From an uncultured Christensenella sp. (GTDB lineage Bacteria; Bacillota; Clostridia; Christensenellales; CAG-917): 64,000 nt of DNA. Where the stretch lies: positions 15,446 to 79,445 of the forward strand of contig CAJTNO010000006.1 of assembly GCA_910577815.1 (NCBI GenBank), read 5' to 3'. Both the position numbers and the translations under genes were made by a program. Shown here piece by piece: positions 6,351 through 57,963 of this stretch (position 1 is its first letter; each line of letters starts with the position of its first letter). The notes beneath the pieces are model-generated. The model worked only from the letters and a program-made list of their open reading frames with translations, made no database searches and was not told the DNA's origin.

Positions 6351-6358
6351 TTATCCTC

Positions 6359-8331: not shown

Positions 8332-8639
8332 ATTGCTTTTTCCACCTCCGTCAAAATCCTTTCGCGCGTGCGCTTCTCCTTAGCCGCCTCCAAATCGCCG
8401 TTGTGCTTATCCATTTCCTTTACAAGGCGGTCCGCATACTCGAGTCGCGTGCTTCTTACAAGCTCCAGCGTACGCGCGTCAAGTCTGTCGAAGGGTGCCG
8501 CGAGCTGCAGCACCCCGTTTGCGTGTATTTCAAACCTGTTAAGCTTAAGATTGCGGTATAATCGGTAGCGCGAGTCTATCTCCCGCAATCTGTGCGCTAT
8601 ATCAAACAAATCCTCCCGGATTTCTCTGAGCCAGTCCAT
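8328..8639 (-). CDS. Hypothetical phage head-completion protein (103 aa from ATG 8639)
   Basis: Track ORF 8328..8723 overlaps the capsid gene by 77 nt. The internal start MDWLREIRED at 8639 lies just after the capsid stop. Confidence 0.4.
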   Translation of the reverse strand: MDWLREIREDLFDIAHRLREIDSRYRLYRNLKLNRFEIHANGVLQLAAPFDRLDARTLELVRSTRLEYADRLVKEMDKHNGDLEAAKEKRTRERILTEVEKAI

Positions 8640-8646
8640 ATCGGAT

Positions 8647-9849: not shown

Positions 9850-9863
9850 AAATTTTCTCCTGT

Positions 9864-10553: not shown

Positions 10554-12423
10554 CCGTATTTTCCTCCGCTAATTTCCTTTCGAGCTCGTTTACTCCGCCG
10601 TTAAGTCCCGCAAGCTGAGTATGCAGCGCAATATGATTTGCAACTCTGTCGCGAAGCTCCTTATTCTTTACGCACCTTGCGGACACGCACATTTTGATAT
10701 GCTCGCCTATATGCAGGGTGTGGTTGTCATAAACGTCGGGTATAATGTCCTCGCGCGAGAAATCCATATTCTCCTTAAGCGCCTTCTTGCGATGAACCTC
10801 ATCCGAGCTTCTGCCCGCCTCCCAGTTGCCGAAGCCGAGTATCTCAAACAGCTTGGTCTTTGTTGCTTCGGGCATCTTTCCGTCGTTGTCGGTGAACAGT
10901 CCCAACCTCAACAGGTCGTACACCATAGCGCGGCGCGCGGACAGCGTGTCGTCTATATCGCTTATCGTATCGAATACGATGTCCTCGCTGTCGATGTTCT
11001 TTGCCGAGAACGAGGCAAGCTCCACCTCTCCGTTTTCGCCCGTAATGCGCTTGACGCGCGGAATCTTTGCGTACTGCCTGTAAAGCCTCAGTATCTGCTT
11101 GCTTATTCTCTTTACGCTTTCGCGCAGGCTGTCGGCTGTCAGCGATATACGCGTATCGTCCTGCTCGAGCAACAGAGAAATTGCGGTTCCCGACGCTACG
11201 TTGGACGGCACCTGCGAATAGGTAGTCACCTCGCTTACGCCGCTTATCATTACAAACTCGTTAAGCAGCTTTTCCTCCTCTCTTGAAAACTCGGAGGGTA
11301 CCTGAGTGGGATTAAGCATAATCGGCGGAGTTCCGCCCTGTCTGTACACAACAATTTTTCCGGGAGGCAAGCCCTCCTCCTCGAGCGCGTCGGTATCCAC
11401 CGAGCCGTCCTCCACTGCGAGAACGCCCACGGCAATTCTGTTCATATATTCGTGTTTTCTGTTCTTTACGGTGTTATAAGCGCGCTGTACGGGGATGATA
11501 CGCTCCACCACGCAGGAGCCGAAGAAGTTGGACAGATTGTCTATACAGGTCTGCCTTGCAAACGGATATTCGCGCGAGCCGTCCTCGCCGTTGAGATACG
11601 GAAGCTCCCCGAGATGCAACAAAGTATCTCCCGCAACGATGATTAGTCTGCCGTTCGGATAATCGGGAGTAGGTTTTTCATACTTCTCTATAACGGTAAC
11701 GCTGTTCTCCCTCTTTTCGCTTACTATCTTAGGCAGCGCCGCGGAGTAGCCGAAGCCGCCCGCTACCTGAACGCTGTCAAAGGAAAACACGTTCACCTCG
11801 CCGCCTTTGACGTCCTTATTCCAAAGCCTCTTTACTTCGTCGACGGTAAGCACCTTTGCGTGCATAATGGACGTCTGCTTTTCAAGGTCGGTAATCGCAA
11901 TATCCTCCGGGAAAATCTCAAACGGCGGACAAAGCGTTATATTTACGTCGCCCTCCTTAACCAGCCCCTCGGAATCAAGCAGCTTGCCCTTGTCCGCGTC
12001 CCAGGTAATTTTAAAGAAGGCGCTGCCCGTTATCTCGCTCCAGGTATTTGCCATAGACAGCTGAGAGGAAAAATCGTTTTCCTTACAAACCGCGTCTATC
12101 AGCTTAGTGGCAAGCGACGCGGAAGCTACGTCATCATCGTCGGACGTCGCGGGGCGCACCGTTCCCATCGCCTTCACGCGCGACAGCTTTGCAAGGCGCG
12201 TTTCCAGTATGGGAGCGATGTGGTTATAAACCTCCCTCTGCTGCCAGTAGAACTGTTTGCCTCCGTCAACGATATCGCCCTTCGGCGAAATTTCCGCAAA
12301 CTGATTGCCCATTACGAAATTCATATTCAGCCTCCAGTTCAGCTCTACGGGGCGCCGCGCTTCCTGCCGCTTTTTAAAGTCGGCTGTAACCTGCGACACA
12401 AGTTGCTTTTCAAATTCAGTCAT
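10537..12423 (-). CDS. Portal protein
   Basis: 628 aa, positioned between TerL and the scaffold gene; typical portal size. Confidence 0.7.
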   Translation of the reverse strand: MTEFEKQLVSQVTADFKKRQEARRPVELNWRLNMNFVMGNQFAEISPKGDIVDGGKQFYWQQREVYNHIAPILETRLAKLSRVKAMGTVRPATSDDDDVASASLATKLIDAVCKENDFSSQLSMANTWSEITGSAFFKITWDADKGKLLDSEGLVKEGDVNITLCPPFEIFPEDIAITDLEKQTSIMHAKVLTVDEVKRLWNKDVKGGEVNVFSFDSVQVAGGFGYSAALPKIVSEKRENSVTVIEKYEKPTPDYPNGRLIIVAGDTLLHLGELPYLNGEDGSREYPFARQTCIDNLSNFFGSCVVERIIPVQRAYNTVKNRKHEYMNRIAVGVLAVEDGSVDTDALEEEGLPPGKIVVYRQGGTPPIMLNPTQVPSEFSREEEKLLNEFVMISGVSEVTTYSQVPSNVASGTAISLLLEQDDTRISLTADSLRESVKRISKQILRLYRQYAKIPRVKRITGENGEVELASFSAKNIDSEDIVFDTISDIDDTLSARRAMVYDLLRLGLFTDNDGKMPEATKTKLFEILGFGNWEAGRSSDEVHRKKALKENMDFSREDIIPDVYDNHTLHIGEHIKMCVSARCVKNKELRDRVANHIALHTQLAGLNGGVNELERKLAEENTDGENI

Positions 12424-12541
12424 TTTACACTCCTTTGCTTATATAGGACGGCATCGCTTACGCGCAGCCGTCCGATTTTTAACTTAAATAAGGTAAATTT
12501 TAAATACGCGCCTTATCCTATTTGCGTTTCAATTTAAATTT

Positions 12542-12841
12542 TTACAAGTTTAGATTATCGTTTTTAAGTACGGGAGCTTTATATTCGTCTCTAAGCGCCG
12601 CAAGCAGTCTGTCCCTTTCTCTTTCAAGCTCCTCGTCTGTAAAATCCTCCGCCTTTCTCTCTCCGTTCAGTTCGATATAGGCTTTAAGCGCTCCGCTGTC
12701 GGGAGGACAGTACTTTTCGGTTACCTTGCGCTTGGTGAGCGCTATTTCTCCGTCCTCCTTTACGGAGTATTCCTCCTGCACCTCTTTATACGAATAACCC
12801 TTAGCCTTCTTCAGCAATCCGCTCAACAATTCTTTATCCAT
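12542..12841 (-). CDS. Hypothetical protein (weak resemblance to the C-terminal segment of a small terminase)
   Basis: 99 aa, overlapping the TerL stop by 19 nt. The stretch KRKVTEKYCPPDSGALKAYIELNG recalls the PPD segment of some TerS proteins. The evidence is weak. Confidence 0.3.
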   Translation of the reverse strand: MDKELLSGLLKKAKGYSYKEVQEEYSVKEDGEIALTKRKVTEKYCPPDSGALKAYIELNGERKAEDFTDEELERERDRLLAALRDEYKAPVLKNDNLNL

Positions 12842-14262
12842 CTCTCATTCCTTCTCACACTGCGGATAAGCCTCTCCTTATCCGTCTGAATTTCGGACTT
12901 GGGCGGCAACGGAACAGGCGCGGGCTTTGGCTGAGTCATAACAAAGTATCTCAGCTCATCCAGCGCGTGGTCGTCCGTTTTCTTAGGTCTGTCGCCCTTG
13001 CCCCACCAATAGGACTTTATTTCCCTTATCAGATTAACGCAATTTGAAAATATATAAATTCTCGGAGGTCTTTGCTCAAACAAGGACTTTATCCGCTGTA
13101 TTCCGCTATACAAATCCTTGTTTACGTCGGTATTGACCAATATACCCTTTTCACAGAACAGCTCCGCCACGCTCTTTTCCGCGGCTAAGGTACGCTGATT
13201 TGCCGCGCTGTCAATTAGCGCGTGCAGTCTGCCCTTAGCATCCCTGTGCCAGCCGAGCCTGTCCGCAATTTCAAATATCTTGCGCACGTGATAATCCACG
13301 TTCTGTCCCGCCTCGAAGTGTTCGTCTATTACGTAAATCACCCCGTCGTAATCAACCGCATAAAAGTGACAGCTTGTCGGATTTGCAAGTCCCGGGTCTA
13401 TGGATATATTCGCATACCACTCCTTCGGCACGTCAAAGGGTTTTATCAAATGGACGTTTTGATCAAATTCGGGATATACCAAGCCCTCGCCGCTTGAGAA
13501 TTTTCCAAACCGTCTTGACAGCTGCTCGCTTTTCGGAATAACCGTTTCCATCGCCTTGACCTCGTTTTTATCGAGATACGGGTTATCCTTCCACTCCATA
13601 TATTCGCACCACACCTCGGGGTCGTCGTTACAGTTCAATTCTATTTCGTCGTACACCCAGGTAAGCCCCTTAAGCGGAGTCATCGTTCCGAAAATATCTC
13701 CGCAGCGGTCGAATACGCGCATACGGCACTCGTCATAAATGTCCTTAGGCGGCTCCTCGTCAAACCATACGAAGTCCAACGATACGCCCTGAAACTTTTC
13801 CCGCCCCTGGTCGCAGGACTTAAAGCCTATTCTGCTAAGTCCTCCAAACGCGTTCTTAACGATAATGTAATCGATAATTCCGTACTCGGGAGAGGTTTGC
13901 TTTCCCTCTCGCATCACCACGTCCGAAATGTATCTCGGCGAGAGGTATTTGAGTATTTTGGCTTGAGCCACGTCTCTCTGCACCTGCTGAGACAGACTGA
14001 CTACCCATCCCGAAACGCCGTTTTTGTTTTCGCGAAACGGATGTATTCCTCTTGCAAGCCACACGCTTTCCACCGCTCCGCACTCGGTTTTACCGGAGCG
14101 GTTGCCCCCGAATACCCAGCGGTTGCGCCTGTCGCATTTATGAAACGCCATCTGCTTTTGATGCACCGAGCGAGTATTGTAGTTAGCAAGCGCGTCGCAT
14201 TTGCGGTTTTCTATTTCGCGTTCGATTTTCAGGAGTCTTAAAAGCGTATCGTTGTCCTTCAT
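12823..14262 (-). CDS. terL: Terminase large subunit
   Basis: Walker A GGNRSGKTECG, a Walker B-like FVWFDEEP, and a long C-terminal nuclease-sized domain. The track ORF starts at TTG 14298; ATG 14262 is more likely. Confidence 0.8.
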   Translation of the reverse strand: MKDNDTLLRLLKIEREIENRKCDALANYNTRSVHQKQMAFHKCDRRNRWVFGGNRSGKTECGAVESVWLARGIHPFRENKNGVSGWVVSLSQQVQRDVAQAKILKYLSPRYISDVVMREGKQTSPEYGIIDYIIVKNAFGGLSRIGFKSCDQGREKFQGVSLDFVWFDEEPPKDIYDECRMRVFDRCGDIFGTMTPLKGLTWVYDEIELNCNDDPEVWCEYMEWKDNPYLDKNEVKAMETVIPKSEQLSRRFGKFSSGEGLVYPEFDQNVHLIKPFDVPKEWYANISIDPGLANPTSCHFYAVDYDGVIYVIDEHFEAGQNVDYHVRKIFEIADRLGWHRDAKGRLHALIDSAANQRTLAAEKSVAELFCEKGILVNTDVNKDLYSGIQRIKSLFEQRPPRIYIFSNCVNLIREIKSYWWGKGDRPKKTDDHALDELRYFVMTQPKPAPVPLPPKSEIQTDKERLIRSVRRNERWIKNC

Positions 14263-14398
14263 AGCCCGAGAATAAGCCCGTAGAATACCAAAAAACAAAA
14301 ATTTATGCCAATAAAATAACAGGAATTACAAAAAATAACGCGGAAAATGGCTTGAAAGACTTTTAATTTGTCAAGTATTATAGTATTATTATTCTACT

Positions 14399-35315: not shown

Positions 35316-35427
35316 ACAGTCTGCAAGACTGTTTGTTTTACCTCGCGTTCGTTTCCCTTTCCCTATAAAAAATATCCGCACAACTACGTTGTACGGATGT
35401 TTTTTTGGTACCCCCATAGGGAATCGA
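35316..35427 (-). repeat. Direct repeat copy B (the authentic tRNA-Glu 3' end and flank)
   Basis: See copy A. Identity begins inside the T-loop (CGATTCCCTATGGGGGTACCA). Confidence 0.85.
35374..35398 (-). terminator. Intrinsic terminator of tRNA-Glu
   Basis: Hairpin ATCCGCACAAC-TAC-GTTGTACGGAT, with one wobble on the - strand, followed by a T-run on the - strand. Confidence 0.6.
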
Positions 35428-35482
35428 ACCCTAGTTTCCGCCGTGAGAGGGCGACGTCTTGAACCGCTTGACCATGAGGGCG
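35407..35482 (-). tRNA. trnE: tRNA-Glu (anticodon CUC), CCA encoded
   Basis: Hand-folded. The acceptor is GCCCUCA/UGGGGGU, the D-arm GUCAAGCGGUUCAAGAC, the anticodon stem-loop UCGCC-CUCUCAC-GGCGG, and the T-arm UAGGG-UUCGAUU-CCCUA. It closely resembles Bacillus tRNA-Glu. Confidence 0.85.
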
Positions 35483-41301: not shown

Positions 41302-44300
41302 TCAAACCTTATTTATTTTTATAGCCCTGCCGCCCGTAAGCGTTATCATCTTAACCGCAGGTAACGTAAAGTCGTTGGCTACTATTATAAGCGGCTTTGT
41401 TAGGCGTTGTCCTGCAGTCACTGTGTAGCCCGTGCACTCCTCGCTTACAAGTCCCATTTTCTTAAGCTTTTCAAGCGTTACCCTGTTTCCGTCCTGGAAC
41501 TTTGCGTCTATATCGTCAAGCTTCAGCGTTTCTATATAGCTTTCGTCGATACTCTCCACGTTCTTACTCTCTATGCACTTCTCCGCAAGCTCGTCGGATA
41601 GGACGTCGCAGTCGTGTACGTGCATTACCTCGCACAGCAAGCCCTTATTCTGCTTATTCGTCAATAGCTTGTTGTGCTTAAGCGTGAATATAAGCTCCTG
41701 TATGCTTCTGTCGTTGTAACGCTTCCTCGCTTCCATATTCAGTTCCTGGAATAAGGCGAGTATCAGCTCCTGCGCTCTCGTCAAGGCTCTGTCCGAGGAC
41801 ACGCGTACATACATAGGCACGTCTACAAATCTCGGCTTATCCGATACGTCCTTATGGTGATAACGGCGAGCGTCATATTCATAGGGCTTGAGTGCAAGCC
41901 ACAGCTTGATTGAACGCTTCGCTATGCCTATTACCGCTATTACCTGTCCTTGATAACGTATCTTTTCTACGCGCTTGTATACGCGATAGGTTACGCCCTT
42001 TTGCGAGCAGAACAGATTTTTAACAGCGGCATACCACTCTCTGTTTTTATCCGAGCTTTGCTTTAAGCGCATACGGAAGTTGGGATATGTCTTTTTGACA
42101 GTTCCGTCCTCCTCGATTATGACGGCTTCTACAAAATCGTCGTCATCCTCGTCGAGTATGCTGTCCCATTCCTCCTCGTCATCGTCTATATCGTCGTCAT
42201 CCTCGCGCTCGGCGGCGACATAAACGTTATTGGAGCTTTGCGACATCAACAGTAATTGCTGTTGTAAATCGTCTATTTTAGATACGAGCGAATTATATTT
42301 GTCATCCTGCTCGCCCGGAGCGGTAAGGTATGCGGTAGTTTCAGGCACAATCTGCTGTACTGCGGGCAACAACCTTTCAAATACCTTGTCTGCAATAAGG
42401 TCGGTATCGTCCATACTCGCATAAGACATATTATCCGACTGCTGTCTGCCCATAAGGTTTGCAAGCATAATTTTCATTGCTTCGTCGCGCTTTGCCTGCT
42501 CCTCGCGCAACGCCGCCATCTCCTCGCGGTGACGTTCTTCTTCCTGTCTGCGTCTTTCTTCCATTTCAAGCAGACGCTGTTCAAATATTTCGCTGTCACC
42601 AGACCTTGCCGCCTGAGTTATGCTCTCCTGGAATGCCAGCTGTCTTGCCTCCTGCGCTTCCTCGCGTGCAATTCTTTCCTGCTTCTCCGCCTCGCGCTCC
42701 TGTTTTTCGGCTGTAAGCTTGCGCTGTTCGCTCTCCTCTATAGCCGTTTCCTTGGCAAGCTCCGCCTGCTTCCAACCTCTGCGCGTTAGCAAAGCTATTA
42801 AGAACATCAACAGCATCACTCCGCACAGCGAGAACGCTATTATGCTCCATACCATATTGGACAGGTTAAGCCATACTATGTCTGTTGCAAATATCGGCAA
42901 TAACCCTGCCGCATAGGTCTTGGCGTTATACTTCTTTGCCTCGCCCTTTGCTTTCTTCTTGCGGTTGCCGTACTGTATCGCCTTTATCATAAAGATTAAG
43001 GTAAACAATAATGCCACGCAGGACGTTATCACCTGCCACAGCGGGAAATGACTTTCTATAAGCTTTTCAAAGAATTCCTTTATCTTATCTATAAAGCTTC
43101 CGCCGTCTCCCGGTTTTTCCGGTGGCGTGGGATTGGGATTGTTCGGGTCCTCCACAACGCTGAACGTCAGCGTTATCGCGTCGCGTGTGCCGTCCTCCCA
43201 GACGTAGTTAGCTCCGTCTCTGAATCGGATTACTATTGTGTATTCACCCTTATCCGTTACTGTCAATGAACCCGAAGCTATCGCCATTATGCTGTCGTCA
43301 AAGCCGTCCAGCTCGAAGGTAAGCGTACTTGCAGTATAGAACTTGCTGTCCTCCTTCAACGTCGGCTTTGCTATCGGTGTTGCGGGATTTAACGGGTCCG
43401 CAGGCGTTGTAAACTCCGCATAGTCGTTTACTCCGTCGCTATACTCTATGCGTACGTTATCTCCGTACTTGCTTTCTACCTTTACCCTGAACGTAGTGTT
43501 GTACGTATTCATTACGTCCTCGTACGTCACGGTAGCTCCGTTAAGGTCCGAATATACTCTGTTTATAAAATCTCTGTCGTTTGCATCGTCTACCTGTATA
43601 TTGGGTATGCCTGATGACGTCCAGCCGTTTACCTTTATCACCCTCGGCACTATCTTAACCGTTATGCTTACAAACGTAATGTCCTCGGGGTCGTCCGGAT
43701 TATCCCATACTACGTTGCCCACTCCAAGCTCGGGCTTAAAGCGGAATACAAGCACATAATCGCCTATCTCCTTCGCCGTGTAATCGGTATAAGCCAATCC
43801 GTTTTTCTTGATGTCTATAGTAAGGTAATTAGCCCAGTCCTGCGGCACGCCCAACAGAGATATAAAATCCACGTCTCGGTTATTAAATACTATTTCGTCT
43901 CCCGAGTATGCAGGCTTTGTAACCTTGTGCGTGTTTATGCTCCAATCCAGGGTAAATTCTCTGTCATAGGCGTCAAATGTATCGTCGAGATTTACAAGTC
44001 TTACCTTTGCAACATAGTTACTGCTTACATTGACTTCTATAACGTTACCGCTATATCCCTGTATCTTAACGCCCTTATCCGCAAGAGACGCGCCGTCCGA
44101 TGTGTATTCGGATACGGTAATGGTATATCCTCCGGGTAACCAGGGTAACGCAAATGAGGACGGAACGTTATCGTTTGCCTGCCAAATCAAATCGTCCGCG
44201 GTTATCGTAACCGCTCCGCGTATGTCAAAATTTACGTATTTAGACGCGGTTGCGTCATTCAGTTCATAGTTACAGGTTGAAGGATTGTTGATAACAACTC

Positions 44301-45996
44301 TGACCTTATATTTACCCGCCGCAGTCGGCAAGGTATCAAACTCCGCCCCGCCCGATTGCAGACTGAATTTAAGCACAAGGTCGGGAGCGCGCGCCGTTCC
44401 GTTGTCGGAGGCAAATACGCCCTGAATATTAGTTACTCCGTTTTGGTCGAAGGTAACGCCGATTTTACGCTTGATTATATTAAAGTTGAAGGTACGTTCC
44501 TTGGCGGCACTGCTTGTGGTGGGATTTTTAAAGGAATACTCCGCAGCGGAGCTTTTAATTTTAGCCTTGACAGCTTTAGTACCCGCATTTGTCATATCCG
44601 CAGGATACTCAATATCTAAAATGCTCGCGTCATACCAAGCTTTATCCGCAGGCGCAACGTCGTCCATAGACAACGCATTGCCGGTATACTCTATTGAAAC
44701 ATCTGTCGGTTGATTTATTTCTCTTATCCAATTTTTAGAGGCTTGTGTTAAATTAAGGTGTAAAGCAGGACGTAATACAAAATCCTGACCATCAGAAGTA
44801 GGATAGCTTCTATCACCCGTAGCTGTTAGCGCATATACAGATGCAACATTATAATCACTGCTTCGCATTGCTTGCGTTCCAGTCGAACTTAATATTGCGT
44901 GTCTATTAGGAATGCCCCACAAACTCGTACCATAATCATTCTCAGACTTATAACAACCAGTTTCAGTAATACTTGGCAACCAAAGCCAATCGCTTTTCCA
45001 ATCATAGTACTGCGGCTTAGCTATAAACTGATTTGCATCACTAATATTTGCAGAAGGTCCCGAATACCAACCACCAACACCACCTATTCCTTTTAAACTT
45101 GTATCAGGTCCTGTAATACCATCTGTACCATTACCCCAAGCTTCATTAGGTAGCATCTTCAAATGTGGAGCAACACTTATGTACATACTCCAAACCCAAT
45201 TTTCCGCACGTTGATACACCGCGCTTTCTGGCTGTGCTAAATACTGAGTTAAACTCCTTTTGCCAACTGACGTAGACGATGACATTGTAAATGCTGAAAA
45301 AGGATGATTTATTCTGTCCCCTTGTGTACCCGTAAGTGAGGTTAAACTTTTAGCATACATCGCGCCTGCGTCACCGCCACCGTTTAAAGTAGCTACACGA
45401 ATTTTACTTGTAGAATACATAGAACCAGGATATGGACTACTTGTATTTGAACTTGAATACTCGTTCCACTGATAAGTTCCATCGCATTTTTCGCTCATCC
45501 AAAGCGTTACAATCAAATCGCCTGCTTTGGTATTCCCGTCCGAACCGTCAAGAGTATTGGTTGTTGCATAAACAACATTCCATTTATATCCCCCGAATTC
45601 TACAGTAATTGCGTTGCCACCATTAATATCCTTAAAACCCATTGAATGGGCTTGAGTATTAGTATTTTGCCCTGTACTTGTAGAACCTATAGTTACGCTT
45701 TGATGCGAGTTAACGGCATTATATAAATCAGTATAAGTTGTCTTGCTTGTTGTACCAAGAATTGCAGAATATAACTTATCTAAAACATCACCGTCAAATA
45801 CTTTTCCGTCGACTCGCGTAGCATAATCACTAAGTGTTAATGAGCCAATCGAAGCAGGAGCTACACCTGCAGTATAAGCATTGCTATTTGATAAAGATTG
45901 ACCGTTAAAAGCAAAAATTGCGCTTGTTAAAACAAACGCAAATATTAGTGCGATTATTGCAAAGAATTTTCTATTTCTTTTGCGCGTCAACTCCAT
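41302..45996 (-). CDS. Giant membrane protein: extracellular N-terminal ~980 aa, a TM cluster, then a cytoplasmic Glu/Arg coiled coil, an acidic linker and a uL15-like C-terminal domain
   Basis: 1564 aa. It has an N-terminal signal anchor and three hydrophobic segments near aa 990-1075. After these come EQRKLTAEKQEREAEKQERIAREEAQEARQ…, a poly-Asp/Glu stretch, and a C-terminal ~70 aa that aligns by eye with the ribosomal protein uL15 C-terminus. Confidence 0.7.
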   Translation of the reverse strand: MELTRKRNRKFFAIIALIFAFVLTSAIFAFNGQSLSNSNAYTAGVAPASIGSLTLSDYATRVDGKVFDGDVLDKLYSAILGTTSKTTYTDLYNAVNSHQSVTIGSTSTGQNTNTQAHSMGFKDINGGNAITVEFGGYKWNVVYATTNTLDGSDGNTKAGDLIVTLWMSEKCDGTYQWNEYSSSNTSSPYPGSMYSTSKIRVATLNGGGDAGAMYAKSLTSLTGTQGDRINHPFSAFTMSSSTSVGKRSLTQYLAQPESAVYQRAENWVWSMYISVAPHLKMLPNEAWGNGTDGITGPDTSLKGIGGVGGWYSGPSANISDANQFIAKPQYYDWKSDWLWLPSITETGCYKSENDYGTSLWGIPNRHAILSSTGTQAMRSSDYNVASVYALTATGDRSYPTSDGQDFVLRPALHLNLTQASKNWIREINQPTDVSIEYTGNALSMDDVAPADKAWYDASILDIEYPADMTNAGTKAVKAKIKSSAAEYSFKNPTTSSAAKERTFNFNIIKRKIGVTFDQNGVTNIQGVFASDNGTARAPDLVLKFSLQSGGAEFDTLPTAAGKYKVRVVINNPSTCNYELNDATASKYVNFDIRGAVTITADDLIWQANDNVPSSFALPWLPGGYTITVSEYTSDGASLADKGVKIQGYSGNVIEVNVSSNYVAKVRLVNLDDTFDAYDREFTLDWSINTHKVTKPAYSGDEIVFNNRDVDFISLLGVPQDWANYLTIDIKKNGLAYTDYTAKEIGDYVLVFRFKPELGVGNVVWDNPDDPEDITFVSITVKIVPRVIKVNGWTSSGIPNIQVDDANDRDFINRVYSDLNGATVTYEDVMNTYNTTFRVKVESKYGDNVRIEYSDGVNDYAEFTTPADPLNPATPIAKPTLKEDSKFYTASTLTFELDGFDDSIMAIASGSLTVTDKGEYTIVIRFRDGANYVWEDGTRDAITLTFSVVEDPNNPNPTPPEKPGDGGSFIDKIKEFFEKLIESHFPLWQVITSCVALLFTLIFMIKAIQYGNRKKKAKGEAKKYNAKTYAAGLLPIFATDIVWLNLSNMVWSIIAFSLCGVMLLMFLIALLTRRGWKQAELAKETAIEESEQRKLTAEKQEREAEKQERIAREEAQEARQLAFQESITQAARSGDSEIFEQRLLEMEERRRQEEERHREEMAALREEQAKRDEAMKIMLANLMGRQQSDNMSYASMDDTDLIADKVFERLLPAVQQIVPETTAYLTAPGEQDDKYNSLVSKIDDLQQQLLLMSQSSNNVYVAAEREDDDDIDDDEEEWDSILDEDDDDFVEAVIIEEDGTVKKTYPNFRMRLKQSSDKNREWYAAVKNLFCSQKGVTYRVYKRVEKIRYQGQVIAVIGIAKRSIKLWLALKPYEYDARRYHHKDVSDKPRFVDVPMYVRVSSDRALTRAQELILALFQELNMEARKRYNDRSIQELIFTLKHNKLLTNKQNKGLLCEVMHVHDCDVLSDELAEKCIESKNVESIDESYIETLKLDDIDAKFQDGNRVTLEKLKKMGLVSEECTGYTVTAGQRLTKPLIIVANDFTLPAVKMITLTGGRAIKINKV

Positions 45997-46031
45997 ACCC
46001 CCGTAGTATTATTCCCGCAAATAAAATTATG

Positions 46032-46054
46032 CATAGAATATACTGTTCTATGTA
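46032..46054. repeat. Left inverted repeat (lox-like site) of the putative invertible promoter
   Basis: CATAGAA-TATACTG-TTCTATG-TA. It is the exact reverse complement of 46198..46220. Confidence 0.85.
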
Positions 46055-46144
46055 TATCAAAGGTAAATTGAGGAAAAACAATGGTTAAAATTACTCGGAT
46101 ACGGCTTAAAAAGTACGGAAAAATGCGTATTTATGCGAAATATA

Positions 46145-46173
46145 TTGACAAATAATGTAGCTTTAAATAGAAT
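46145..46173 (+). promoter_or_regulatory. Near-consensus sigma-70-type promoter inside the IR-flanked segment, currently pointing away from the 1564-aa gene
   Basis: TTGACA (46145..46150), a 17-nt spacer, then TAGAAT (46168..46173) on the + strand. Confidence 0.6.
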
Positions 46174-46197
46174 TATACTACTAATAAAAAAAGTACG

Positions 46198-46220
46198 TAC
46201 ATAGAACAGTATATTCTATG
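46198..46220. repeat. Right inverted repeat (lox-like site)
   Basis: TA-CATAGAA-CAGTATA-TTCTATG. The arms extend to 10 bp (GTACATAGAA/TTCTATGTAC). Confidence 0.85.
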
Positions 46221-46266
46221 TACATAGCATTAGAAAAATCTACCAATTATCTTATACTTTCATAAA

Positions 46267-46304
46267 ATAAAACCGTTTGCCGGAGTATTTGCAAACGGTT
46301 TTAT
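46267..46304. terminator. Hairpin terminator (14-bp stem), usable on both strands
   Basis: ATAAAACCGTTTGC-N10-GCAAACGGTTTTAT. Confidence 0.65.
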
Positions 46305-46350
46305 TTGTTATTTATTATATATATTTACTCATTATTTATATATTATCATT

Positions 46351-46380
46351 AAAAAAGCAAACCCTTCGGCTTGCTTTTTT
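46351..46380 (-). terminator. Intrinsic terminator of the 787-aa lipoprotein gene
   Basis: AAAAAAGCAA-ACCCTTCGGC-TTGCTTTTTT, directly after the stop at 46387. Confidence 0.7.
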
Positions 46381-46386
46381 ATGTCT

Positions 46387-48750
46387 TTACGCCTGTAAAG
46401 TATAGGTTGCTTGAAGTTCGTCTGGTCCGTTCCAATCGTCATAAATCTTTAAGGTATTTCCGTTGTCGGATAATACTATCCAACAAGCCGAACCGGTAGG
46501 ATTGCTTGAATTATATTTGAAATTTCCGTCCTTTGTTTCCGTTACGCTCGGAGTCATAGTATTGCCATTCTTCAAATAAAATACAACTTCTCCGGTTTCA
46601 GTATTAAATTCAATATAATCGACATTTAATGCACTGCCTACATAGGTCTTGACTGCTGAAGCCGTTTGATTTTCAAACTTGGCTTCAATGGATGCGTCAG
46701 CCGTCATAACCTCGCTGAGCACAAACTCTGTATTTGTACCTGCAAGCACCCACTTGGAGAACACCTGTCCGGCAGGAGCCGCAGGAGTTTGAATTTTGTC
46801 TGCGTTGGGAGCGGAACCGCTGTTGACAATCTGATTTAAAACTCCGTTTACAGTCAGTGTGAAATATGTTCCCTTTTCAAAGGTTACTGCGGCGGGAGAT
46901 TTTTCCGCTACGCAGAAATAACCCGTAAGATTATTGTCGCCTTGCTTCATAATATGCACATAGGGATTTTCAAATACTTCATAGTACAGAACAACATATT
47001 CTCCTATAACGTTGACGGTAGCCTTTGACAAATTCAGTCCGTAATATGCTCCTGCTTCGGTTATAACCCATTGCTGCGAGCCCTTAATCCATTTGCCGAC
47101 AAAATCCGAAATCTGCTTTTTAACTAAAGTGTCCTTAGTATCAAGCACTATAGCCGCCGCATTCTCGTTATACAAATCAGTAAGCGTAAGCGCGCTGCCG
47201 TTTGAGGTAAGACCGTAAGCCGAATTGTAATCCAGGCTTGTAGCAAACAGCTCGCCTTCGCTTATTATAACGTTATAAGCAACACCGTCCAAAACCGCAT
47301 AGCCCAATGTTATACTATCAACAGTTGCCGCAGCATCCGCAACAATCTGGAATTCGTGTCCCTCTACGTTCCACTTACCCTCCATAGCAATAACAGGATT
47401 TACAAAGGCAGGATGCTCGGAATTCTCCCATATTGCATACAACGTAAGCTTATCGTCGCTCGATACGAGAGGCTCGACCAATTTGGTACCGTTTGCAAGC
47501 ACGCTGCCGTTGGGCGTATTGGACCAACCTGCAAATTCCATACCCGCAGGAGCGGTAAATTTGCAGTCGAAGGCGCTTGTGGTCAATGCCAAATTTGTAG
47601 CATAATCTTTTTTGACTATAGACATCGTGCCTGTTCCGCCGTTTGCGTCAAAGGATATTTCAACCTTATTTTTAGTCCATACAGGCACTATTCTGATATT
47701 TTTTGCAAGCATAACAATCGGTTCGTCAACATTATAGGTTGCTTCCGTTGCCCAGTACGGGTCGCCGCCGCCCTCCTGCGAAGTGGGTATATGCAAATAC
47801 TGCACTCTCCACTTAGTCTGAGTATAATGAGCCAGGCTCAGAGTTGCAGGCACGGTAAAGGTTTCGCCCGCAGCTTTATTTTCTATTACGGGAACTTCGC
47901 CTTTAACGTCGCTTTCGTTTATAGAATAACTATCAGTTTTAATGACGGTTACCGTATAAGTAACACCCGCGTCCTTCCATATCGCGCGCAGAGTATGATT
48001 TTTATTTCCTATAAATTTTTCGCCTGCGGCATAATCCGTCGTGCCGTCCGTCCAGCCGTCAAATACCTTACCGGGATTTGTCAGGCTGTTTCCGTTTGGA
48101 AGCTCAATGGGGCTTACCCATTTTTCCACCCAAATAGGAGCTATACTACCGCTTGCGCCGTTTGCGTCAAAGGTAACCTTCCAGCTGAAAAGTGCGGTTA
48201 TTTCCATATCGGAAGTTACAGGAGCTTCGAAGTTATACTCCTCTCCCGTCGCCTCGTTTACCCAATAGCGGAATATTTTTCCGTCGCTGTTTACGGGGTC
48301 GTCGGCAGGCTTTGCAACCTTTTTACCGCTCTCCACGTTTACGGTCTGGCTCTCGGCGCCGTTATTGGGATTAAATACCACCTTATAAACGGTGGGCTGC
48401 TCCTCTCCGCCGCCCTGGTTCAATGTCCATACTGCGGCAAACTCAACAGCCTTTGCGGGCATTGTAAACTCCGCGCCCGCCGCATAGGTTTTGCCGTCGT
48501 ATGACCATCCTCCAAACGTATGGTCCGCCTTTGTCAGCTCTCCTGCGTCGGGAAGCGTAATTTTAGCTCCCTCCGCATACTCCCCGCCACTCGGAGCAGT
48601 ACCTGTCGCGCCCGCACCGCCCACATACGTCACTGCGTATTTATCGGAATCGGTTTCATTGCCCTGGCTATCATTGCAAGCAACCGCAAGCAGGCTCAAC
48701 ACAAGCAACATCACAATTACGAAAAACACCTTGGAAATCTTGTGTTTCAT
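46387..48750 (-). CDS. Surface lipoprotein with Listeria-Bacteroides (Flg_new) repeats
   Basis: 787 aa with a signal peptide and lipobox-like LLAVAC. Several Flg_new units are present (…HTFGGWSYDGKTYAAGAEFTMPAKAVEFAAVW; …FRYWVNEATGEEYNFEAPVTSDMEITALF). Confidence 0.75.
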   Translation of the reverse strand: MKHKISKVFFVIVMLLVLSLLAVACNDSQGNETDSDKYAVTYVGGAGATGTAPSGGEYAEGAKITLPDAGELTKADHTFGGWSYDGKTYAAGAEFTMPAKAVEFAAVWTLNQGGGEEQPTVYKVVFNPNNGAESQTVNVESGKKVAKPADDPVNSDGKIFRYWVNEATGEEYNFEAPVTSDMEITALFSWKVTFDANGASGSIAPIWVEKWVSPIELPNGNSLTNPGKVFDGWTDGTTDYAAGEKFIGNKNHTLRAIWKDAGVTYTVTVIKTDSYSINESDVKGEVPVIENKAAGETFTVPATLSLAHYTQTKWRVQYLHIPTSQEGGGDPYWATEATYNVDEPIVMLAKNIRIVPVWTKNKVEISFDANGGTGTMSIVKKDYATNLALTTSAFDCKFTAPAGMEFAGWSNTPNGSVLANGTKLVEPLVSSDDKLTLYAIWENSEHPAFVNPVIAMEGKWNVEGHEFQIVADAAATVDSITLGYAVLDGVAYNVIISEGELFATSLDYNSAYGLTSNGSALTLTDLYNENAAAIVLDTKDTLVKKQISDFVGKWIKGSQQWVITEAGAYYGLNLSKATVNVIGEYVVLYYEVFENPYVHIMKQGDNNLTGYFCVAEKSPAAVTFEKGTYFTLTVNGVLNQIVNSGSAPNADKIQTPAAPAGQVFSKWVLAGTNTEFVLSEVMTADASIEAKFENQTASAVKTYVGSALNVDYIEFNTETGEVVFYLKNGNTMTPSVTETKDGNFKYNSSNPTGSACWIVLSDNGNTLKIYDDWNGPDELQATYTLQA

Positions 48751-52241: not shown

Positions 52242-52306
52242 ACTTTATCTCCCGCTGACTGCGCAAACCTGCATAACTCAACGAATAAACTATATTTATT
52301 TCTAAA

Positions 52307-52335
52307 AGTATACCCCCCCCCTATACGATTGTCAA
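52307..52335 (-). promoter_or_regulatory. Promoter of the lipoprotein operon with a G9 homopolymer (C9 on the + strand) in the spacer
   Basis: The - strand reads TTGACA (52335..52330), ATCGTATA, GGGGGGGGG, TATACT (52312..52307). The spacer is exactly 17 nt, 9 of them the G-tract (52313..52321). The ATG lies 66 nt downstream. Confidence 0.6.
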
Positions 52336-52595
52336 CAAAATTATCCACATTTTATACGAAGTTATGCATATTTTTTAAGAATACAATTTTAAAAAATATC
52401 AAGATTCCAAGAATATATTCGAATATATTTATATTAAAGTGATATTTATAGCAATGATAATTAAATAAAAACAAAAGCAACAAAAAAAGCGCTCCGTACG
52501 GAACGCATAAATTCACAAAATTTGTATAATTATTCACAAATATATTTAAATTCAAAAAACAGACAAACTTAAAATTCTAATAGAAAATCATACTT

Positions 52596-54341
52596 TTAAA
52601 GCTTAACGCCGACTTTATTGTATTCGGTTTCATCAAAATAACTGCGATATTTTTTTGAAGTCCCTCTATAACAAAACATCATTTTAAAGAAATATCCAAA
52701 CACCTTAAAGCACGCCTTTACAAACGGTGCTTTTTTTATCTCGGTAACAAAGCCTTTTCCGGTTATCGGGTTAAACTGTAATACTTTTTTTCTCATAAAA
52801 AAGCCGTCTACGTTGAAAACAGCCATATTGACCTTGGACATTTCTTTTTTATAAAAACATTTGGGGATTAAATATCCGTTTAAAGTAACAATGTGTTTAA
52901 GCTTTATACCCTTATTGGCAACCGCAGACAAATTTATATAATCATTTGCTTCCTTAATGCTATATTCGGCAGATAGCTCCTCTTCGGAAAGAAAAACAGG
53001 AAAGTTACGACGTATATCCTTATGATTTTTTTCTCCGTTTAAATTGAAAACAAAATCCGGACCTTTAAAAAAATCCTCATATGCCCTGAATATCAAATCA
53101 ACAGCGTAATATCTTTGCATAACAAGCTGTCTTCCTACGCGTACAAGAAGCTTTATATAATTGGCAAACGCTCCCTTCCCTTTAGGAAAATATGAATTGA
53201 ATATAAGCTCGTTTCTGTTATTGTAGTACTCTATTCCGGGAACATATTTAACATCGAAATCCTCGTGCCAAACCGATATTCCCGACATAGAAATCCAATG
53301 CTCGGCTGCTCTCAAGCCGTATTCCATATCGTCGCACTTGATAAAGAGAGGCAGAGGATAACCGTACTTATCAATAGTGCTTACGGGCATACAGGTATAA
53401 AACCAACCGTTATAATCGTATGCGCTATCCGCCTCGTTTTCGACAATCTCCCGAGCATTTCTCACGTCAACGCGCTTGCGGTGCGGAAACAGTTTAACTC
53501 CGTTCCAATCCGCGCCCATCTCCATCTGAATATGAGGGCTGTTAGCCAGTAGCATAGCTCCGCCAATCGAAGCGTTTTTATATTCATCGTTTAACAGGCA
53601 AAGCAAGGCATAAGTACGCCAAATTGTGTTGACGTCAAATACAATATCGTCGTCCATCAGCAGAAAATGCGTATATTCCCCCAACCTACGGACTTCTTGC
53701 ATCCCTCGTGTAAAGCCTCCGCTTCCGCCTGTGTTTTCGTTTGGAATGACCGTAATTCCGTCGCCGAAATCTTCATCCAGCGTTTGTCCGTTGTCCACCG
53801 CAAAAACGTCAAAAAAACGCTCCTGCAAGCCATTCCTAAACTCGACTAAGCTGCGGATATTACGCTTCACGTACTCCTCTCGCTTATAGGTGCATATTAC
53901 AATGCCTATTCGCACGTCGTTGCCATCCGCGTCGCCGTACCAACCTCCCGAGCGCAATACGCAGTCTTCCTTCGCTTTGATAGCAAAGTATACTATTCCC
54001 TTTTCGTCCAAATCGGAAAGCTTCAGACAAATCTCATCGTTTTCAGTAAACTCTTTTTCCGCAAGCAGCTTATGCTCCGCGCCGTCATACAGATATAAGG
54101 ATATATCTGCCCTACCTTCCAAATCGAGCTTCAGCGTAACCTCGTTTACTATCGTATACTTTGAATATTTGGTATGTGAAAAACAGTTGAAAAAAGTATC
54201 GAAGGTAACTGTCTCTCCCTTTTTAACAGATAATCCGCCGCCGCAAAGCTCTCCGCCTCGGAAATAGAGCCGGTTATCGACGCAAAAGTCATTTTTAGGA
54301 AACGTAATATTATACAGCAGCATTTTTTTCTTCTCCGACAA
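52596..54341 (-). CDS. Family-2 (GT-A) glycosyltransferase, putative galactofuranosyltransferase
   Basis: 581 aa. The GT-A core starts at IGIVICTYKREEY and carries the DxD motif LLMDDDIVF. An N-terminal extra domain of about 140 aa is present. The start overlaps the glf stop by 32 nt. Confidence 0.65.
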   Translation of the reverse strand: MSEKKKMLLYNITFPKNDFCVDNRLYFRGGELCGGGLSVKKGETVTFDTFFNCFSHTKYSKYTIVNEVTLKLDLEGRADISLYLYDGAEHKLLAEKEFTENDEICLKLSDLDEKGIVYFAIKAKEDCVLRSGGWYGDADGNDVRIGIVICTYKREEYVKRNIRSLVEFRNGLQERFFDVFAVDNGQTLDEDFGDGITVIPNENTGGSGGFTRGMQEVRRLGEYTHFLLMDDDIVFDVNTIWRTYALLCLLNDEYKNASIGGAMLLANSPHIQMEMGADWNGVKLFPHRKRVDVRNAREIVENEADSAYDYNGWFYTCMPVSTIDKYGYPLPLFIKCDDMEYGLRAAEHWISMSGISVWHEDFDVKYVPGIEYYNNRNELIFNSYFPKGKGAFANYIKLLVRVGRQLVMQRYYAVDLIFRAYEDFFKGPDFVFNLNGEKNHKDIRRNFPVFLSEEELSAEYSIKEANDYINLSAVANKGIKLKHIVTLNGYLIPKCFYKKEMSKVNMAVFNVDGFFMRKKVLQFNPITGKGFVTEIKKAPFVKACFKVFGYFFKMMFCYRGTSKKYRSYFDETEYNKVGVKL

Positions 54342-55419
54342 GCTCGAGCGCGCGCTCGATTACTCTGTCCATATCGTAATATCTGTACTCTCCCAATCTG
54401 CCGCCCATAATGATTTCCGGTCTGTCTTTAAGCTTCGCGCGATATTTTTCGTAAAGCGCGCCGTTTTTATCGTCGTTTATAGGATAGTACGCCTCCGCGC
54501 CCTCCGTCCACTCGAGAGGATATTCATAACTGATAACAGTCTTATCGGATTTCACCGAAGTAAAATGCTTATGCTCTATAATTCTTGTATACGGAGTCTC
54601 CCTATCCGTGTAATTTACCACGGCATTGCCCTGAAAATCATTGATATCCAAGGTTTTTTCCTCAAGCAGTACCGTTCTATACTCAAGCCGTCCTTCGCTA
54701 TAGCCAAAAAATTCGTCAATCTTGCCCGTATAAAGTATTTTACCGAAGCTGTCCTTCCCGTCGGCTACAAGGTCGAAATAATCGGTATTCAATCTTACTT
54801 CAATACCGCTCAGCATATTTTCCGCCATAGCGGTATAACCGTCTATCGGGATACCCTGATATTTTGCGTTAAAATAGTTATTGTCGTACTCGAAGCGCAG
54901 AGGAAGTCTTTTTATTATAAATGACGGAAGCTCCTTGCAATCTCTGCCCCACTGCTTTTCCGTGTAACCCTTGATTAGCTTGATATAAATATCCTTACCT
55001 ACCATTTTCAAGGCCTGCTCCTCGAGATTTTTAGGCTCGTCTATATTTAAATCCGCAATCTGCTCCGCAATTTTTGCCTTCGCCTGCTCAGGAGTTTTAA
55101 CACCCCACATCTGCTCAAAGGTATTCATATTAAATGGAAGATTATATCTTTCTCCCTTATAATCCGCAATAGGACTGTTTATAAACGAATTGAACTCTGC
55201 AAACCTGCAAACGTACTGCCATACCCTGTCGCTGTTGGTATGAAAGATATGCGCGCCGTATCTGTGTACGTCAATCCCTTCCACCTTTTCGGTATAAATA
55301 TTGCCTGCAATATGCCCGCGCTTGTCTATTACAAGACAGCGTTTACCCGCGTCAGTCATCTCTCTTGCAAAGACGGCTCCGGTCAGCCCCGCGCCGACAA
55401 CAAGATAATCGTAAAACAT
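54310..55419 (-). CDS. glf: UDP-galactopyranose mutase
   Basis: 369 aa with the FAD-binding motif VVGAGLTGAV, plus HRYGAHIFHT and overall Glf length and pattern. Confidence 0.9.
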   Translation of the reverse strand: MFYDYLVVGAGLTGAVFAREMTDAGKRCLVIDKRGHIAGNIYTEKVEGIDVHRYGAHIFHTNSDRVWQYVCRFAEFNSFINSPIADYKGERYNLPFNMNTFEQMWGVKTPEQAKAKIAEQIADLNIDEPKNLEEQALKMVGKDIYIKLIKGYTEKQWGRDCKELPSFIIKRLPLRFEYDNNYFNAKYQGIPIDGYTAMAENMLSGIEVRLNTDYFDLVADGKDSFGKILYTGKIDEFFGYSEGRLEYRTVLLEEKTLDINDFQGNAVVNYTDRETPYTRIIEHKHFTSVKSDKTVISYEYPLEWTEGAEAYYPINDDKNGALYEKYRAKLKDRPEIIMGGRLGEYRYYDMDRVIERALELVGEEKNAAV

Positions 55420-55509
55420 AGAAAACCTCTGATTTATAGCTTATCATAAATGATAACACGCGTACTACATTAAGTCAAATTTAACAATTATGATTATCTT
55501 TGTCAAAAA

Positions 55510-56412
55510 TCAATCGTTATTTGCAACGTCGCACAAATCAGAGCAGACTGTTAGCTTTAATTCTCCGTCGATTTCGGCAGCAACTTCCAAAACATCGTCT
55601 GATATTTCATTTGAAATAATCGGCGGAGCATCAACCGCATTATTTACCAACTGCGGAATGAGCCCTCTGAAAAGAATTTTCTTCTTATGCCAATCTATCG
55701 CTATGGCGACAAAATATATTATAGCCCCCAAAAAGCAAACCGCCATATCTTCTATCGTATCAATCAAACCGATATCAAGATAGCCGTCTATAGTAATAGA
55801 CTTTCCACTGCCGAAATAAATTACAGTCTGAGTAATTCCGTCAATGTTAAAAGTTTCGCTGTGAGTTCCCGAAAGCAGATAGGAATTAAAACCGTTAACA
55901 ATCGTATCCTCCTGCATATCCAGACCGAAAAGCGCGGTTCCTAAATATTCAAACAATTCCCAGACAAGTCCTATCGCAAGACTAAGTGCAAATCCAAACA
56001 ATAAGCAAGCCCAGAACGGTTTTTTATTTTTAGCCTCGCCGACCGCCAATTGAAAAAGCCCGAAACCGAGACAGGCAAATACAAAGCCGGACAAAACGTG
56101 CAATTTATATCGAAAAACGGCACCAAAGTATATAAATTGTATCCGACACCCATAATACTACCCATTGCGATAAACAGCGTAATTGCCAACGTAGGCGCAG
56201 GGAACTTCAATTTAAGCCATTTTTCCACGGCATAGATAAGCGGAATAAAAAATCCGAACATAAATGACATTATCGCGCTTATAACCTCGTTTACAACAAG
56301 AAAATAGATAAACAATGCCAGGCAGAATTCCGCAAACATAACAATGATTGTCAAAAACAGTTTACTGTCTTTGTTTCTTTGAGCTATATATAAAGTACGC
56401 AGGTCGTCGCAT
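55510..56412 (-). pseudogene. Polytopic membrane protein gene interrupted by at least one frameshift (or homopolymer assembly errors)
   Basis: Two overlapping ORFs in different frames (55971..56354 and 55510..56103). Both are hydrophobic until the overlap, where the upstream frame turns to non-membrane junk after …LVPFFDI at a T5 run (A5 on the + strand, 56113..56117). The only good SD+ATG (GGGAGG, ATG at 56412) is in a third frame and stops after 16 codons. Confidence 0.55.
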
Positions 56413-56625
56413 ATACACCTCCCTAAATAAAACTATAATTGTTTTTAGGATTTTAAGTTAAAATGATTTAAAAAACATTAAATTTGTAAAAAATGCCATC
56501 AAGAACCACCACTAACAAACCTTTTATGAGTTGTATATTTACAAATATTCTTATAATTCATCTTTGGGCTTACTACTTTTAAAACTCCGCTTATGTATGA
56601 ACATTGTACATTGTATGCTCAAAAG

Positions 56626-57963
56626 TTATCTGAATTTTTTGTATAATGCTACGAGCGTCTCGACATTACTCGTCTGCGGAAACATATCGTATGGCTGAAT
56701 ACTGCCAATTTCAAAGCTTTTCGACAAAATATTCAAGTCCCGCGCAAGCGTCTGAGGATTGCAGGAAATATAAACTATTTTGTCAAACCCTGTCGCACTC
56801 TCTAAAACCTCTCTGTCGCAGCCCCTGCGCGGAGGGTCCAGAATGAGCGCGCGACCATTACCCTCTATATCCTTGCAAAACAGCTTTGCGTCCGAACAAA
56901 CACATTTCACTCTGCCTGAGATACCCAACGAGCGCATCAGCTTTTCCGCGTCGCAGCTTGCTGATTTCTCTATTTCAACCGATATTATGCTCGCCTTGGG
57001 CATACGCAACGCAAGCTGAGCCGTAAGAAGTCCTACGCCCGAGTATAGCTCGACAATATCTCCGCTAAAGCCTTCAAGCGCCTTTGCCACCCCATCGTAC
57101 AAAGCGTCGCGCACGGCGTTATTCACCTGCAAAAATGATTTAGGAGAAACAACGGCTTTAAATTTTCCAAGGCTCTGCGCTTCCTCCGTTCCGCTTACAA
57201 GACGAACTGAATCTCCCATTATCACATTATCGGCGCGGGTATTGGACGAAATATACAATGCAAATTTTCCGAATGTACTTGTCAGTCTTTCCGTTAATTC
57301 GGCAAAGTGCGGCAATTTATCTCCGTTTATTACAATCGTCAGCGACAAAGTATCGAGCATACGCGCAACGGCGTGGCGCAAAAGACCTTTACGGCTGTTT
57401 TCGTCATAAACGGAAATTTCAAATTGGTTCGCCCAATCCGTAAGAACCGCAATCAGCTCTGCCGCCCACTCGCCGTGTAGAGGACACCATTTCATAGGCA
57501 CCGCTTTATGCGAACGCTTTTCATAGAAGCCCAGCGACACTCTTTTACTGCGCGCATTGTAAGCAAACGGCAAAGAAAGCTTATTGCGATATTCCCAATC
57601 GTTAAGTCTGACGGGAGTAGGCACATCCAAATTTAAGCCTGCAAATTTTTTTATCGCGCGCCTTACGCTCTCTCTTTTTATTTCAAGCTGATGCGCAGTA
57701 TCGGCGTGCTGAAGGTCGCAGCCTCCGCACTTGCCGAAATACGGACAACGCGGCTTAACCCTTGAGGACGACGGCTTTATAATTTTAGTAACTTCGCCGA
57801 AAGCGCAATCCTTTTTAACATATACGATACGTGCGCAGACCTCCTCGCCGACTAAAGCGCAAGGCACAAATACGGGATAGCCGTCAAGCTTTATTACTCC
57901 CTCTCCGTCGCTACCGAAATCCGTAACGGTACCGTCTATGATGTCGCCCGCAATCAAATCCAA
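56626..57963 (-). CDS. TRAM-domain 23S rRNA (uracil-5-)-methyltransferase, RumA/RlmD family
   Basis: 445 aa with an N-terminal TRAM-like domain, the Cys cluster CPYFGKCGGCDLQH, and a SAM-MTase C-terminal half (ILDPPRRGC…YISCNPQTLARD). Confidence 0.85.
   Translation of the reverse strand: MDLIAGDIIDGTVTDFGSDGEGVIKLDGYPVFVPCALVGEEVCARIVYVKKDCAFGEVTKIIKPSSSRVKPRCPYFGKCGGCDLQHADTAHQLEIKRESVRRAIKKFAGLNLDVPTPVRLNDWEYRNKLSLPFAYNARSKRVSLGFYEKRSHKAVPMKWCPLHGEWAAELIAVLTDWANQFEISVYDENSRKGLLRHAVARMLDTLSLTIVINGDKLPHFAELTERLTSTFGKFALYISSNTRADNVIMGDSVRLVSGTEEAQSLGKFKAVVSPKSFLQVNNAVRDALYDGVAKALEGFSGDIVELYSGVGLLTAQLALRMPKASIISVEIEKSASCDAEKLMRSLGISGRVKCVCSDAKLFCKDIEGNGRALILDPPRRGCDREVLESATGFDKIVYISCNPQTLARDLNILSKSFEIGSIQPYDMFPQTSNVETLVALYKKFR

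Follow-up and report, generated by a model that had tools for sequence, protein, structure and literature searches.

The window analysed here, meaning the whole stretch of 64,000 nucleotides, comes from an uncultured Christensenella sp. Between two minus-strand genes for large predicted surface proteins, it carries a short intergenic region with the layout of a promoter switch. In this text, OFF denotes the orientation in which the promoter of this region points away from the 1564-aa gene, and ON denotes the orientation in which it points towards it. The features of the locus are as follows:

41302..45996, minus strand: putative controlled gene, 1564 aa, characterized by uL15 matches and hydropathy
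45997..46031, minus strand: fixed part of the 5' leader with a ribosome-binding site (GGGGG), between the proximal site and the start codon
46032..46054: putative gene-proximal recombination site IR-L, tgCATAGAA-TATACTG-TTCTATGTA, two inverted arms and an asymmetric 7-nt spacer
46055..46197: predicted invertible segment, 143 bp, in the OFF orientation in the window, inverted in another assembly (L018) and homologous to the inner segments of nine other distinct invertons
46145..46173, plus strand: predicted promoter TTGACA-17-TAGAAT inside the invertible segment, directed away from the target gene, scoring 11/12
46184..46226, minus strand: OFF-state hairpin and U7 run, 15 pairs formed by the palindrome of the distal site, -16.4 kcal/mol, z -4.5
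46198..46220: putative distal recombination site IR-R, TACATAGAA-CAGTATA-TTCTATG(TA), the exact reverse complement of IR-L
46265..46306, both strands: bidirectional intrinsic terminator with a 16-bp perfect stem and T-runs on both strands, -19.2 (plus) and -19.3 (minus) kcal/mol
46350..46381, both strands: second bidirectional terminator, the primary terminator of the 787-aa gene, -12.2 (plus) and -18.0 (minus) kcal/mol
46387..48750, minus strand: upstream gene, encoding a 787-aa Flg_new-repeat surface protein

The 1564-aa protein is predicted to carry a positive charge at its N-terminus and then a helix serving as signal or anchor, followed by an ectodomain of ~950 aa and two to three transmembrane helices (983-1075). 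Beyond these helices, a charged cytoplasmic coiled-coil region and, at the C-terminus, a uL15-like domain are predicted. The C-terminal ~70 aa (41302-42000) match ribosomal uL15/L27A in Pfam with an E value of 1e-8, and the same C-terminus matches PDB uL15 chains with an E value of about 1e-3. Homologs P0001-P0018, which are closer (57-97% identity where aligned), retain this match, and none is recorded for the distant P0019-P0042. The gene also has a mosaic look. In the ectodomain, its product is similar to P0001-5 (80-88% identity along the full length), and the last ~39% of the protein is 97% identical to P0007-9, which bear a different, longer ectodomain at the same locus. Such a composition is suggestive of ectodomain exchange between alleles.

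The gap between the proximal site and the ATG is only 35 nt, too short to accommodate a fixed promoter. Orthologs and paralogs alike retain the leader sequence GCGGGAAT(A/T)ATACTACGGGGGTATG. The start codon proposed by the earlier note, ATG 45996, stands in so far as some gene callers choose it, while the real start may be TTG 45990, two codons further on. This TTG has the GGGGG ribosome-binding site 7 nt upstream, a better spacing, and the gene callers used on orthologs pick either codon.

The neighbouring genes encode further large surface proteins with LRR_5 and Flg_new domains, as well as galactofuranose enzymes. Positions 3067-14298 of the window resemble a prophage, with genes for Viral_Rep, DUF7934, a major head protein, a P22-like portal, and a large terminase; an integrase for this block was not seen within the window. 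The surface-protein cluster also contains a C9 tract at 52313-52321 (G9 on the coding strand); no other run of C or G in the 64 kb reaches 8 nt. The G9 sits in the 17-nt spacer of an 11/12 promoter, TTGACA-17-TATACT (52307-52335, minus strand), located ~65 nt upstream of the gene for a 1138-aa LRR_5/Flg_new surface protein (ATG 52241). Its layout is that of a classic slipped-strand phase-variable promoter, and the cluster would then contain another switch, of a different type.

The two sites bordering the 143-bp segment form a perfect inverted repeat. An inverted-repeat search recovered 46032-46054 and 46198-46220 as arms of 23 nt, 100% complementary, with 143 nt between them, which confirms the exact reverse-complement pair first described in the earlier note. 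Across the whole 64 kb, this pair is the sole non-hairpin perfect inverted repeat of at least 16 nt within 1.5 kb; given the local base composition, the chance expectation for perfect 23-nt inverted repeats within 300 nt is ~2e-5 in 64 kb. The full IR-L sequence at 46032-46054 is CATAGAATATACTGTTCTATGTA, and it is identical at all orthologous loci examined. Each copy has the layout CATAGAA-TATACTG-TTCTATG, that is, inverted arms around an asymmetric 7-nt spacer, so the palindromic arms and the cores TATACTG and CAGTATA are present just as they had been read before. At IR-R, the palindrome reaches across 46194-46226. The motif CATAGAA-N7-TTCTATG occurs only twice in the window, both times at the switch, with two or fewer mismatches tolerated, and neither the motif search nor the inverted-repeat search found further site copies in the 64 kb. 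Upstream of the other big surface genes of the window (35.5-35.7 kb and 52.2-52.6 kb), no inverton was found.

The segment enclosed by these repeats is short and intergenic, between the 787-aa and 1564-aa genes, and its promoter is the top consensus match of the region (11/12). The best intergenic minus-strand match reaches 9/12 and is not conserved in relatives. Consensus and conservation together predict an internal promoter that faces the gene in one orientation only. This agrees with the initial description of a near-consensus TTGACA-17-TAGAAT pointing away from the gene into two hairpins, with no comparable minus-strand promoter in the assembled orientation. The OFF junctions at the locus are GCTATGTACATAGAATATACTGTTCTATGTACGTACTTTT and CCTTTGATATACATAGAACAGTATATTCTATGCATAATTT, and the ON junctions are GCTATGTACATAGAATATACTGTTCTATGTATATCAAAGG and AAAGTACGTACATAGAACAGTATATTCTATGCATAATTTT. 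With the segment flipped, the -10 hexamer lies 82 nt from the ATG, in keeping with the ON leader of ~75 nt estimated previously, and this leader has no significant structure (z -1.1). An Rfam scan of the window detected no riboswitch or leader family at the switch, its sole match being a tRNA at 35409-35481. A 24-aa open reading frame with a ribosome-binding site inside the cassette (46082-46156) was considered as a gene and rejected: its ATG is lost in L015, L016, L018, and L019, and the frame is not conserved. In most family members, the -10 region (window 46163-46176) reads TTTACATAGAAT and contains the recombinase half-site TACATAGAA; this copy could be a third binding site overlapping the promoter, or it could be chance.

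Distal to the segment, both terminator hairpins reported earlier proved stable on both strands by folding (folding z about -5.5 to -6.4), and the two terminators insulate transcription of the 787-aa gene from the switch. A terminator-like site running from 46226 to 46194 plus CTTTTTTTAT was also detected on the minus strand. Since its U-run belongs to the invertible segment, this terminator-like hairpin exists in the OFF orientation only, and it may be incidental because the T-run is not conserved in paralogs. Hairpin-like inverted repeats, judged by eye and unscored, lie just beyond the distal site in most paralogs. These structures bear on a static reading of the locus, according to which the palindromes are operators of a dimeric regulator, or terminators, that flank a divergent promoter, and any contig in the ON arrangement is an assembly artefact. 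Each site is indeed self-palindromic, the distal site with its U7 run scores as a minus-strand terminator, and short-read assemblers can mis-thread repeats shorter than k.

Exact-protein look-ups with the upstream gene and the target orthologs yielded the orthologous locus in 10 further assemblies. Eight of them (L001-L003, L015-L017, L019, and L020) are co-linear with the window, which corresponds to OFF. L021 is also OFF, belongs to the same locus by downstream synteny, and carries another ectodomain allele. In the remaining assembly, L018 (ENA ERZ17908446, contig ERR899286_1814), the locus is ON: TTGACA-17-TAGAAT faces the gene and lies 82 nt from its ATG. The inverted arrangement aimed at the gene, which the earlier note had predicted, was thus found at the same locus. 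The L018 inner segment is identical to that of the window at 138 of 143 positions when flipped and at 74 of 149 when unflipped. Its flanks are as in the window, comprising the distal flank with the terminator and the proximal leader, and the cassette retains locus-specific features such as the AATAAAAAAAGTACG end. Because the inverted copy holds the locus-specific version of the cassette, L018 represents an in-situ inversion and not a new insertion. Both orientations therefore occur at one locus, with L018 ON against the window and nine others OFF, in a comparison made between assemblies. The ON share at this exact locus is 1/10 assemblies, a figure to be read with the caveat that the OFF assemblies may include repeated assemblies of one sample.

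Contig ends cluster at invertons (L004, L020, L023, L028, and six MAG contigs), which repeats would also produce. The end of the Logan contig L004 was considered as a sign of within-sample heterogeneity and set aside as ambiguous: the break falls 3 nt past the edge of the inverted repeat, a position that misfits both an inversion branch point and a clean paralog branch. Paralogous repeats could explain this break equally well.

A search for further copies of the site beyond the window, which the earlier note had proposed as a follow-up, uncovered a multi-copy family in a related MAG and in metagenome contigs. The 21-mer site is present on six contigs of the MAG Bacillota bacterium NALB_7823_24 (JAMPEA01). 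All six copies lie beside a contig end and are joined to a homologous promoter cassette, and L006 contains a full copy. In total, the family comprises 11 distinct invertons, with at least six copies in one related MAG, and both orientations are represented among the relatives. L013, L022/L023 (two assemblies), and L027/L028 (two assemblies) are ON, and L006, L011/L012, L014, L021, and L029 are OFF. The ON order in L013 is promoter, site, leader, and signal-peptide gene; in the OFF locus of L014, the promoter runs into a terminator. Three viral-contig matches to the 18-mer were dismissed as chance, being single sites in coding regions of unrelated phage contigs.

Aligning 10 distinct cassettes revealed little or no variation in TTGACAAA, in TA(G/A)AAT, in their position, or in the site arms, while the rest diverges. 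Across 22 sites from the 11 invertons, the arms of 9-10 nt follow the consensus (G/A)TACATAGAA - N7 - TTCTATGTA(C/T). The 7-nt spacers fall into four classes, namely TATACTG, TATGTTA (L022 6516-6700), TATTATG (L027), and TAATATG (L014 1803-1976), and they are exact reverse complements within the pair in 11/11 pairs. Site-to-site spacing is mostly 167-170 bp, with 157-158 bp in L014 #2 and L021. The element at L014 1803-1976 has the same arms around its TAATATG spacer and lacks TTGACA in its interior; a consensus promoter is located beyond it (~2060) and points through the inverton to a 331-aa gene. This arrangement suggests a cwpV-like leader inversion that would use the same recombinase family.

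The family-wide data are difficult to reconcile with static palindromes. The ON arrangement requires junction k-mers longer than 23 nt, which are absent from any OFF-only sample; ON was also found at three other loci, in two assemblies for two of these; and operators need no reverse-complement 7-nt centres, yet every one of the 11 pairs has them. A fixed operator or terminator arrangement with an artefactual ON contig is therefore considered extremely improbable. The multi-copy character of the family also raises the question of whether the 189-bp unit might be a mobile element carrying a promoter, similar to a MITE and with terminal inverted repeats, whose orientations stem from independent insertions. 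The unit is small, intergenic, bounded by terminal inverted repeats, and present at least six times in one MAG, and the window lacks at 52.2-52.6 kb the inverton that MAG contig L007 bears in the syntenic region. However, no target-site duplication lies beside the element, and the L018 ON copy has exactly the same junctions and contains the locus-specific inner sequence rather than that of a paralog. Furthermore, the proximal site has an outer arm whose sequence changes together with the flank (ATGCATAGAA, GCGCAGAA), as would be expected of fixed DNA, and an arm-spacer-arm organization with spacer classes is that of a recombinase core site, not of a transposase terminal repeat. We regard independent insertion as a very unlikely source of the two orientations.

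Taken as a whole, the locus is very probably an inverton, that is, an ON/OFF switch operated by site-specific recombination. What the comparisons show directly is its anatomy, both orientations at one locus in different assemblies, the multi-copy family, and the covarying spacers; reversibility within one clone, the class of the recombinase, and the activity and transcription start of the promoter are predictions.

Gain and loss of such elements can be followed among relatives. Contig L007 (1-5880) is syntenic with window 52242-57963 (Glft2-like glycosyltransferase, UDP-galactopyranose mutase, TRAM methyltransferase) and, in place of the G9 promoter of the window, has an inverton end and a tRNA gene; this difference implies that invertons are gained or lost between related strains. 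The distant homolog P0024 (35% identity) is without an inverton and has a fixed TTGACA-17-TAGAAT promoter, from which it follows that the switch is confined to closer relatives. In the distant homolog on L030, an inverton is lacking and the TTGACA-17-TAGAAT promoter is fixed. Diversity-generating-retroelement genes (RVT_1 reverse transcriptase and bAvd) adjoin target homologs at L017 6481-7761, L030 401-2009, and L013 1862-2689, and no reverse transcriptase gene was found in the window itself.

The enzyme acting on these sites would have to be encoded elsewhere. Consistent with the initial assessment, Pfam, PHROGs, and NCBIfam detected no recombinase in the 64-kb window (non-shadow open reading frames of at least 150 aa), and for five related invertons, Pfam annotation of the genes up to 10 kb away revealed no convincing recombinase. 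The one match, a 522-aa large serine recombinase ~10 kb from L027, looks like a mobile-element integrase.

The architecture of the sites is informative about the class of this enzyme. Conserved arms with a free but partner-matched centre, as in Cre/lox, FLP/FRT, and lambda att cores, are expected of a tyrosine recombinase. The sites of serine invertases have an even length, in which a 2-bp crossover separates two half-sites of 12-13 bp. Inverted arms with an asymmetric overlap in the 6-8-bp range are found in all 22 sites of the 11 invertons, and the overlap is matched within each pair (11/11) and variable between pairs (4 classes). The dyad is centred on one base within a non-palindromic 7-nt stretch that varies between invertons; neither an even dyad with a 2-bp crossover nor conserved 12-13-bp half-sites were observed. 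The lox/FRT-like reading of the earlier note thus gains support from the conserved arms and the partner-matched variable spacers across the family. Within the inverton model, a trans-acting tyrosine recombinase is reasonably likely, because the arms are conserved around a free, partner-matched 7-bp centre.

It could also be that the switch is real and is flipped by a small serine invertase of the Hin/Gin/Mpi type, since the best-known multi-locus inverton regulon, that of Bacteroides fragilis Mpi, uses a serine recombinase (work cited in PMC11602134). A serine invertase is disfavoured because the dyad is odd-length, with 9-10-nt arms around a 7-nt spacer of variable sequence. In addition, the entire spacer varies yet the pairs match, which is the behaviour of a tyrosine overlap and not of a helix-turn-helix half-site. 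This option is judged unlikely, although less remote than the static and mobile-element readings.

Under the inverton model with a tyrosine recombinase, the 143-bp cassette places a near-consensus sigma-70-type promoter between two identical 23-25-bp inverted sites. A recombinase encoded elsewhere would bind the arms, exchange strands across the matched spacers, and flip the cassette. In the OFF state of the window, the promoter would transcribe ~130 nt of the plus strand and stop at the 46265-46306 terminator, leaving the 1564-aa gene without a good promoter. The two terminators would halt read-through from the 787-aa gene, and the OFF-specific hairpin with its U7 run may help. In the ON state, the flipped promoter would drive the 1564-aa gene through a ~75-nt leader that crosses the proximal site.

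The comparison with fimS, the Bacteroides capsule promoters, and the C. difficile switches made by the earlier note holds, in that the present locus is the same kind of device. The RecV switches of C. difficile (flgB, cwpV) consist of segments of ~150-200 bp with inverted repeats of ~21 bp, and their tyrosine recombinase is encoded elsewhere and acts on several loci. As in those switches, a short segment flanked by inverted repeats lies upstream of a surface-structure gene in a member of the Bacillota. The inverted repeat is unrelated, and unlike RecV targets, which share little consensus, the sites described here are nearly identical between loci and have a clear arm-spacer-arm symmetry. Moreover, the promoter is inside the segment here, whereas it is outside in cwpV, and regulation of flgB is post-initiation. 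The fimS element of E. coli is a single locus of 314 bp with 9-bp inverted repeats, and its tyrosine recombinases FimB and FimE are encoded adjacent to it. Both systems carry the promoter on the invertible element and would exert ON/OFF control over a surface structure, but the present one has a 143-bp segment, 23-bp inverted repeats, multiple copies, and no adjacent recombinase.

Mpi of Bacteroides fragilis, a serine recombinase, controls in trans the capsular-polysaccharide promoters of many loci with a common inverted-repeat motif, generating combinatorial surface variation. The family reported here resembles this regulon in its many loci, common motif, and conserved promoter inside the segment. 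It differs in the motif itself, in a sigma-70 promoter (TTGACA/TAnAAT) versus the Bacteroidota type, in targets that are giant proteins rather than polysaccharide operons, and in a site architecture that points to a tyrosine recombinase. Cre/loxP and FLP/FRT share with these sites the inverted arms and the asymmetric, orientation-setting spacer, variable but matched between partners. Their arms are 13 nt instead of 9-10 and their spacers 8 instead of 7, and the likeness is architectural only, without sequence relation.

Catalogues of invertons run to thousands of entries, sorted by inverted-repeat motif, and groups from Clostridia have been linked to tyrosine recombinases (PMC11892184, PMC11602134). 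Such groups are defined by inverted-repeat homology (PMC11892184). No paper in the searchable literature contains the sequence of the present inverted repeat, which is also absent from the searched supplements of the hCom2 inverton paper. The finding is a new inverted-repeat family in a well-known kind of device, and it leaves the understanding of how invertons work unchanged.

Since the arms and the promoter cassette recur before many large surface proteins, phase-variable surface proteins in this genome probably form a regulon under the control of a recombinase. A more specific proposal, which we consider somewhat doubtful, is that a single trans-acting tyrosine recombinase runs this regulon genome-wide, acting on at least 6-7 nearly identical cassettes before giant surface proteins, with the spacer classes forming orthogonal, lox-like sets that do not cross-recombine. 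If this were true, equal spacers at different loci could drive larger chromosomal inversions or promoter swapping. The compact 25-bp site with its natural spacer variants is also of value for the genetic toolbox.

For the organism, these comparisons suggest that, in an uncultured lineage of gut Clostridia, a reusable promoter cassette makes a family of very large surface proteins with membrane anchors phase-variable. Most assemblies show the gene OFF, so its presence in a metagenome does not mean that it is expressed. Variable surface proteins of this kind are likely targets in the interaction of these bacteria with their host and with phages.
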